NCBI RefSeq assembly: GCF_003334765.1
Contig: NZ_QOWT01000144.1
Direction: 5' to 3' (one strand)
DNA from: Escherichia coli
GTDB lineage: Bacteria > Pseudomonadota > Gammaproteobacteria > Enterobacterales > Enterobacteriaceae
Length of the DNA stretch: 316 bases
Positions 50-316 of this stretch are shown here, piece after piece. Numbering within the stretch: position 1 is the stretch's first letter; each line of letters begins with the position of its first letter. The notes beneath the pieces were generated by a model. The model made no database searches. It saw nothing but the letters and a program-made list of their open reading frames with translations, and was not told the DNA's origin. Both the position numbers and the translations under genes were made by a program.

Positions 50-316
50 TGTCCAACGCTGATGCCGTTTTTTGCGGATGTGCTGTTTAAGGCGTTCCAG
101 ACGACGGAGCGATGCTACAGGCACAGATATTTCTGGCTCAGGTGATTTCTTCAGTGATAACTCTCTGACAACAAGACGTATCAGAGGCATATATCTGTAC
201 ATCATTCGTTCAGGCTCATCACCAATATTTTTTAGCAGGTGCCATCGATCGGCCACCTGTCTGGCCTGAGGTGCACCTTCACGTGCTGCTGTCGCATAGA
301 CTCCACTGCGATCACG
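2..316 (-). CDS. Partial CDS, both ends outside the window: hypothetical basic DNA-binding protein with an HTH-like motif; possibly a transposase, recombinase or regulator, family unassigned
   Basis: Minus-strand frame beginning at + position 316 is open for all 105 codons. The other two minus frames hit stops within about 30 codons, and the + frames are broken by stops apart from one 65-aa ORF. The translation is Arg/Lys-rich and carries an L-x3-G-x-S-x3-I-S motif at its C-terminal side. Codons are mostly enterobacterial-type (CTG, CGT, CGC, GAA, AAA) with several rare ones. No homology search was possible, so function is inferred from motifs only. Confidence 0.6.

Follow-up and report, generated by a model that had tools for sequence, protein, structure and literature searches.

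A predicted IstA-like tandem helix-turn-helix module nested in the catalytic domain of an ISEc38-like ISL3-family transposase

The stretch of DNA analysed here, a 316-nt piece of an Escherichia coli contig referred to below in its full length as the window, encodes a peptide rich in proline and glutamate that is followed by a markedly basic one, and thereby raises the question of what protein it belongs to and whether this succession reflects a modular architecture. A preliminary description, made from the sequence of the window, had read it as an N-terminal module, a flexible linker, a basic helix and a DNA-binding helix-turn-helix (HTH) motif. The gene is encoded on the minus strand. Minus-strand frame 1 is open over all 316 nt and yields 105 residues (RDRSGVY...KGCSFREIS), its translation reading ...RELSLKKSPEPEISVPVASLRRLERLKQHIRKKRHQRWTEVMALHNKGCSFREIS, and the other two minus-strand frames of the window are full of stops. 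The two plus-strand open reading frames, at window positions 32-145 (37 aa) and 72-269 (65 aa), were rejected as spurious, since they are antisense to a strongly supported transposase gene. Counted in plus-strand positions, the two peptides lie exactly where the preliminary description had placed them, KKSPEPEISVPV at nt 151..116 and SLRRLERLKQHIRKKRHQRW at nt 112..53, both on the minus strand; the latter does contain nine Arg or Lys among its 20 residues, and the HTH-like motif comes directly after it.

Judged from its sequence matches, the window is an internal piece, residues 212-316 of 539, of an ISEc38-like DDE transposase of the ISL3 family. It is 100% identical at the nucleotide level to sites in many complete E. 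coli genomes, where these are annotated as 'ISL3 family transposase', and of 5426 complete E. coli genomes, 2950 contain a match to it, mostly on the chromosome and at a median of one copy per genome. Plasmid copies annotated as 'ISL3-like element ISEc38 family transposase' are 94% identical to the window. The expectation that the protein binds DNA and is not a metabolic enzyme is thus borne out by annotation as well as by profile matches, the gene of the window being that of a transposase.

The state of the element was read from a full-length copy identical to the window, in NZ_CP025851.1. The gene at this locus (L001 3368-4987, 539 codons, with the window at L001 4001-4316) is flagged as a pseudogene and has three in-frame stops, at codons 113, 354 and 468. 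Consequently, the linker and basic-helix features described below are, in this copy, relics of a once-active transposase, the pseudogene state being established on this one full-length window-identical copy. The chromosomal copy is 94.96% identical to plasmid ISEc38 over 1764 nt, both ends included, and 46 of the 539 codons of the full gene differ from ISEc38 (~91.5% identity), the three in-frame stops among them. Within the window, 19 nucleotide differences from ISEc38 are distributed over 17 codons (12 non-synonymous), and all 12 amino-acid differences fall in aa 245-291, with none in 211-240 or 301-330. By the ISfinder convention, two elements are the same IS at nucleotide identities of at least 95% or amino-acid identities of at least 98%. 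As the identity to ISEc38 is borderline, the element is best named an ISEc38-like relative. It has in common with ISEc38 (e.g. WP_072003777.1) the gene organisation, the 539 codons, both 23-bp terminal inverted repeats (TIRs) and the domain layout; however, the window copy is decayed and mostly chromosomal, whereas ISEc38 is an active plasmid-borne element.

The intact ISEc38 transposase scores 374.3 bits on the NCBIfam model transpos_ISL3 (NF033550; cut-off 180), its residues 31-535 (505 residues) mapping to model positions 1-368 of 370. On the same model, the 105-aa fragment encoded by the window reaches 50.8 bits by itself, under the cut-off as expected of a fragment, and its residues 2-43 are matched by Pfam DDE_Tnp_ISL3. 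Outside the window, Pfam Zn_ribbon_ISL3 is found at ISEc38 aa 40-84 (E = 1.1e-5), and the zinc-ribbon residues C43, C46, C82 and C87 are conserved in the homologue alignments. The catalytic triad D163, D234 and E508 is invariant or at least 90% conserved, with D234 as its only member in the window, and K515 is conserved as well. Every test that was run places the element in the ISL3 family, apart from the target duplication, of which none is visible.

Typical of the ISL3 family are TIRs that begin with GGCTCTTC... and target duplications of 8 bp. In plasmid ISEc38, an element of 1722 bp is bounded by 23-bp TIRs that match at 21 of 23 positions, with the sequence GG(T/C)TCTTCCGCAAC(T/C)TGGGTGGA. 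No 8-bp direct repeat is visible flanking the element (TGAAAAGT versus ACTTTTGC). A further 20-22 bp outside each TIR are common to the plasmid and chromosomal copies (L002 2272-2293 and 4016-4037; L001 3273-5036), and the sequences outside both TIRs are inverted repeats of each other, with 45-nt arms that are 80% complementary. This leaves two explanations, a mobile unit that extends beyond 1722 bp and a target site that is itself palindromic or repeated. Multiple subterminal binding repeats of the IstA type were looked for in the ISEc38 ends, and none were found beyond the 23-bp TIRs. The HTH-1-coding region contains an imperfect inverted repeat of 19 nt, with one arm at window 8-26 (L002 3291-3309) and the other outside the window at L002 3370-3388; the arms are 79% complementary and separated by 60 nt, and the repeat is probably a chance match.

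The features of the window, with the evidence for each, are as follows.

158..316, minus strand: part of the ISL3 DDE (RNase H-like) domain, aa 212-264, from matches to Pfam DDE_Tnp_ISL3 and NCBIfam transpos_ISL3; it holds the RDR strand, D234 (second of the catalytic Asp residues, nt 250-248, within VADRWH) and, after it, a long helix at 235-264.
104..157, minus strand: linker 1, aa 265-282, SLKKSPEPEISVPVASLR, which contains KKSPEPEISVPV; from the coil predicted by AlphaFold2 (AF2) and from variability among homologues.
47..103, minus strand: basic helix, aa 283-301, RLERLKQHIRKKRHQRWTE; from the helix predicted by AF2 and from Lys/Arg conservation.
nt 79-53, minus strand: conserved motif RR-x-RR-x-x-R-Y/W, aa 291-299, in the C-terminal half of the basic helix.
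2..46, minus strand: first part of HTH-1, aa 302-316, VMALHNKGCSFREIS; from sequence and structure matches to IstA.

In the homologue alignments D234 and H237 are invariant, and V302, L305, G309 and I315 are conserved. Of HTH-1, the window includes helix 2 and, ahead of it, the end of helix 1 and the turn with the invariant G309; the recognition helix (aa 323-332) is located outside the window.

The profile matches of the full-length ISEc38 protein reveal how these features are arranged. DDE_Tnp_ISL3 is split into two pieces, aa 160-295 (model 1-135, E = 1.9e-18) and aa 413-534 (model 116-240, E = 1.5e-13), and the stretch between them matches NCBIfam transpos_IS21 at positions 2-104 (E = 1.6e-16); with the excised module (aa ~263-405) alone, the IS21 model gives an E-value of 1.1e-17. 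A phmmer comparison with the PDB aligns ISEc38 302-398 with residues 10-107 of IstA from IS5376 (E about 2e-10), the only protein in the PDB with a sequence match to the ISEc38 transposase (8B4H, 8Q4D). Likewise, Foldseek against the PDB returns 8b4h_A for the module, with a probability of 1.0 and 26% identity over 106 columns. The DNA-contact residues of IstA include R31, T92 and K95 (PMC10122671), and these align with conserved, identical or similar residues of ISEc38, R323, T383 and R386, respectively. R323 is Lys or Arg in 36 of the 36 sequences of one homologue alignment (A3; 97% Arg). By fold and by contact residues, the region aa 302-398 appears to be a tandem-HTH DNA-binding module of the IstA type.

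Deleting aa 263-405 from the protein gave an ISL3 score of 372.7 bits, versus 374.3 bits for the intact sequence, with a match that was now contiguous (362 residues on model 1-368). When more was deleted (aa 250-412), the ISL3 match was lower and split. Linker 1, the basic helix, the two HTHs and linker 2 (together aa ~263-405) are an insertion in the ISL3 DDE domain, between its second Asp and its Glu. The elements named in the preliminary description are thus found, but the linear layout given to them is not, the module being nested inside the catalytic domain; what had been taken for a module at the N-terminal end corresponds to the initial part of the DDE catalytic fold and bears both catalytic Asp residues.

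Short canonical ISL3 transposases (n = 2; 440 and 416 aa) are without the inserted segment and have no IS21 match. In the long forms, an IS21-like match was found inside the insert in all five proteins compared (Priestia, Streptomyces, Rhodococcus, Rhizobium and Sulfitobacter), which come from the Bacillota, the Actinomycetota and the Alphaproteobacteria. The tblastn search for short forms gave at first only long ones, and the two short proteins were obtained via the Priestia query. When 1.84 billion cluster representatives were searched with the insert, 596 clusters (50% identity) matched at E ≤ 1e-10, and many of these consist of proteins 530-590 aa long that are matched around residues 240-430. 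The idea of a gene fusion that is chimeric or an artefact was rejected, as proteins at 30-40% identity from different phyla conserve this architecture in frame.

Some further observations concern these relatives. The NCBIfam profile NF049919 ('DesA/ISL3 alpha bundle tail') covers the bundle straight after the DRFH helix in a short ISL3 transposase (L010 aa 239-349), and in long forms its match begins only beyond the insert, at model position 29-45 (L004 aa 387-470; L008 aa 387-456); this pattern places the IstA-like module near the N-terminal end of the helical bundle. About a thousand Klebsiella plasmid records (hits H35-H47 and H65-H82) have a relative with 80-83% amino-acid identity, and the PLSDB gene table has no gene under the Klebsiella match in most records among the matches listed. 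On a Priestia megaterium plasmid, a long-form ISL3 element adjoins an IS21 element with istA and istB (L006 858-2390 and 2503-4384). This adjacency is probably a coincidence, albeit one that illustrates the kind of co-residence that would allow domain exchange.

The linker and the basic segment were further studied by structure prediction and by comparison of homologues. AF2 was run on the intact ISEc38 transposase (mean pLDDT 88.5, pTM 0.67) and on the window's own copy with its three stops repaired (mean pLDDT 85.7); at pTM values of 0.65-0.67, the position of the module relative to the catalytic core is not defined by the models. Both models give the same succession of elements.

aa 235-264/265: helix.
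aa 265-282: coil, with pLDDT below 50 inside it.
aa 283/284-307: helix.
aa 312-319 and 323-332: helices completing HTH-1.
aa 333-348: connector.
aa 349-360, 366-375 and 382-393: the three helices of HTH-2.
aa 394-408: coil, linker 2, with low confidence at 396-402.
aa 409 onward: the ISL3 helical bundle resumes.

In linker 1, the residues with pLDDT below 50 are aa 269-279 in intact ISEc38 and aa 268-280 in the repaired window copy, and the other regions below this value are the N-terminus, linker 2 and, in the repaired-copy model only, residues 340-342. The models do not show a single compact globular domain devoid of a linker; linker 1 is present, and the predicted helix that contains the basic segment is continuous with helix 1 of HTH-1, in keeping with the earlier claim that the basic helix leads into the HTH.

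In two homologue alignments (A1, n = 34; A3, n = 36), the invariant DRWH motif and its helix are followed by a region of very variable length and then by a conserved block, RR-x-RR-x-x-R-Y-x-E-V-..-L-H-..-G-x-S-x-R-x-I-A-R. Linker 1 ranges from 8 to 61 residues in length (median 25) over 36 homologues and is the most variable block of the protein; its Pro content is 14.8%, versus 5.6% overall, and Ala, Ser, Glu and Thr are also enriched. Similarly, among 110 ISEc38-family proteins the sequence entropy of all 10-residue blocks peaks at 271-280 (0.483 versus a mean of 0.178), and that of HTH-1 is among the lowest (0.091). The low predicted order, the variable length and sequence, and the enrichment in Pro, Ser, Glu, Ala and Thr point to linker 1 as an intrinsically disordered interdomain linker, and on this count, too, the preliminary description has stood: the segment is a low-confidence coil that is hypervariable in both length and sequence. 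The basic segment, which it had also singled out, is real, yet only in part conserved. Positions 291, 292, 294, 295 and 298, in the conserved C-terminal half, are Lys or Arg in 72-92% of homologues, R292 and R295 being nearly invariant in A1, and position 299 is aromatic; the N-terminal half is variable (positions 280-290) and in intact ISEc38 has a Pro inside it (RRPERL, position 284). A coiled coil or leucine zipper was rejected for the basic helix on the grounds that no conserved hydrophobic heptad is seen by eye, that ISEc38 has Pro 284, and that the N-terminal half varies.

The basic segment is the most Lys/Arg-dense 20-residue stretch of the whole protein (windows starting at aa 279-282). 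At least nine Lys/Arg in 20 residues were obtained in 1099 of 5000 shuffles of the 539-aa protein and in 948 of 5000 shuffles of the 105-aa fragment, and at least five Pro plus Glu in 12 residues in 1605 of 5000 shuffles of the fragment. Since both densities are within chance in the shuffles, composition alone cannot support the claim of a linker and a basic segment. Rather, it is on the evidence of homologues and structure prediction that these features are confirmed as real.

In combination, we consider it likely that the window belongs to an ISEc38-like ISL3 transposase with an IstA-like tandem HTH nested in its catalytic domain, in which linker 1 serves as a tether and the basic stretch extends the helix of HTH-1. 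The module, of ~140 residues, is inserted between the helix behind D234 and the remainder of the helical bundle on the way to E508. Its order is linker 1, basic helix, HTH-1, a short connector, HTH-2 and linker 2 (aa 394-408), the last of which runs back into the catalytic domain. Two such tethers could let the tandem-HTH unit swing off the catalytic core and reach DNA in cis or in trans, and by homology with IstA the tandem HTH may bind the transposon ends, i.e. the 23-bp TIRs. Along the basic helix, the Arg/Lys residues at i, i+1, i+3, i+4 and i+7 form a conserved stripe that might add non-specific contacts to the DNA backbone or groove, or else connect to a partner subunit. The identity of the gene, the nested module, the disorder of the linkers on either side and the conservation of the basic motif are shown, and it is by homology with IstA that we infer that the module binds DNA and what it would bind; what the stripe does is likewise deduced.

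Where exactly the imported part begins could be read differently. The basic segment may belong to the ancestral ISL3 scaffold and not to the IS21-like module, in which case the insertion point would lie after it; we regard this as unlikely, albeit a serious candidate. Canonical ISL3 proteins have a basic R..LK..RW-type stretch right after the DRFH helix, exemplified by ...RIRIMNEKRHKDGKYYRKLKHYWKLILK at the equivalent place of the Staphylococcus protein, and the IstA-alignable region starts only at aa 302, beyond the basic helix. Pfam, moreover, weakly aligns ISEc38 aa 276-295 to ISL3 model positions 116-135, the same positions to which aa 413-432 also align. In the deletion series, keeping the basic segment (296-408 removed) gave 373.4 bits, compared with 370.8 bits when only the linker was kept, which favours the scaffold. 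However, this gap is only ~2.6 bits, and the 372.7 bits obtained with the basic segment deleted too (263-405) are essentially the same. It also counts against an ancestral origin that a hypervariable disordered linker parts the basic segment from the ISL3 helix 235-264, and that the segment is helically continuous with HTH-1.

A second alternative accepts the nested module but assigns the basic helix to protein-protein or structural duty, for example as an interface for oligomerisation or synapsis or as a rigid spacer, so that only the recognition helices of the HTHs would touch DNA. The IstA transpososome offers a precedent, as the residues N-terminal to HTH-1 are there located at the core of a multi-subunit interface and not on the DNA (PMC10122671). 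At about 24 residues, the helix in ISEc38 is a long one that runs without a break into helix 1 of HTH-1, and the basic segment is not purely basic, with 2-6 acidic residues in most homologues. Still, its net charge averages +3.3, the conserved positions of this helix are specifically Arg/Lys (72-92%) and not hydrophobic heptads, and the Pro and the variability in the N-terminal half of the ISEc38 segment argue against a coiled coil. We find a purely connecting role distinctly unlikely on this balance, though deserving of some weight. Finally, it is highly improbable that the composition of these segments has arisen by chance, or by drift as a pseudogene decays, and lacks structural meaning: shuffles do reach the same densities in about 20-30% of trials, the window-identical copy has three in-frame stops, and all 12 amino-acid differences from ISEc38 lie in aa 245-291, but a variable Pro-rich linker, RR-x-RR-x-x-R-Y and then an HTH recur in intact homologues at 30-40% identity in several phyla, the AF2 models are confident of a helix in the basic segment and of low confidence only in the linker, and the clustering of substitutions is seen among intact ISEc38-family members as well.

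For the window, the preferred reading of a nested IstA-like module amounts to a tidy annotation, that of a fragment of a common decayed ISEc38-like insertion sequence, and the finding is correct and largely ordinary. The element itself is already known: it figures among the catalogued insertion sequences, and its protein takes its NCBI name from ISEc38. For the long-form subfamily, the same reading suggests that an IstA-type DNA-binding unit can ride inside a catalytic domain on flexible tethers, and speaks for domain shuffling between IS families. We put forward tentatively, as a possibility that falls somewhat short of an even chance, that a large phylum-spanning ISL3 subfamily (about 510-590 aa) captured the IstA tandem-HTH end-binding unit, nested on two disordered tethers behind a conserved basic helix, within the alpha-helical insertion domain of the DDE fold. 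We know of no experiment, biochemistry or solved structure for any ISL3 transposase. No paper describing a nested HTH or IS21-like module in ISL3 transposases was found in a search that covered the openly accessible papers but not the pages of ISfinder or TnPedia; the chance that the nested architecture is undescribed is moderate, and it is visible to anyone via standard profile searches. Papers that mention ISEc38 appear to be genomic surveys of resistance and mobile elements, and a 2025 preprint implicates ISL3 elements at high copy number in how hospital Enterococcus faecium adapts rapidly (PMC11952509). The ISL3 family is abundant. If true and undescribed, the architecture would be a clear case of the exchange of a DNA-binding domain between two IS families; if true, it would in addition provide an example from nature of a DNA-binding module at work inside a catalytic domain, and would predict that the ends are recognised in a different way than in canonical ISL3 elements. 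Experimental handles are offered by the 23-bp inverted repeat, by residues R292/R295/R298 and R323, and by linker length.

Among known systems, the top whole-model Foldseek matches are ISCth4 (1e-5) and Hermes (about 1e-3), at 9-12% identity and TM values of about 0.2-0.3. In the DDE transposases Hermes/hAT and ISCth4 (IS256 family), as in ISEc38, a helical domain inserted in the RNase H fold separates the catalytic Glu from the second Asp; the likeness is one of fold level only, and the Foldseek search gave no sign of a tandem HTH nested in their insertion domain. The short ISL3 transposases (about 400-440 aa; Staphylococcus WP_262586296.1 and Arthrobacter WP_231941630.1) have in common with ISEc38 the N-terminal Zn ribbon, the DDE triad with DRFH/DRWH, the E-x6-K motif and the alpha-helical bundle between the second Asp and the Glu. 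Unlike ISEc38, they are without the ~140-residue module of linker, basic helix, tandem HTH and linker.

With IS21, in turn, ISEc38 shares only the DNA-binding module. The whole-protein IS21 match (NF033546) amounts to 60.7-64.5 bits versus a cut-off of 160 and covers only model 2-104 of 294, and istB is not annotated beside the element in the two loci examined (NZ_CP025851.1 and plasmid ISEc38). The element is consequently not a member of IS21, given this score, its ISL3-type catalytic core and the absence of an adjacent annotated istB. IstA of IS5376 (8B4H, 8Q4D) and the ISEc38 module both have two three-helix HTHs joined by a basic, Pro-containing connector; in IstA, HTH-1 and HTH-2 read two conserved blocks per terminal repeat, and the connector is placed in the minor groove (PMC10122671). 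The ISEc38 module differs in that it is preceded by a conserved basic helix, after which the region alignable with IstA begins. Moreover, the tandem HTH is N-terminal in IstA, whereas in ISEc38 it is nested, on two disordered linkers, in the catalytic domain of an unrelated DDE family.
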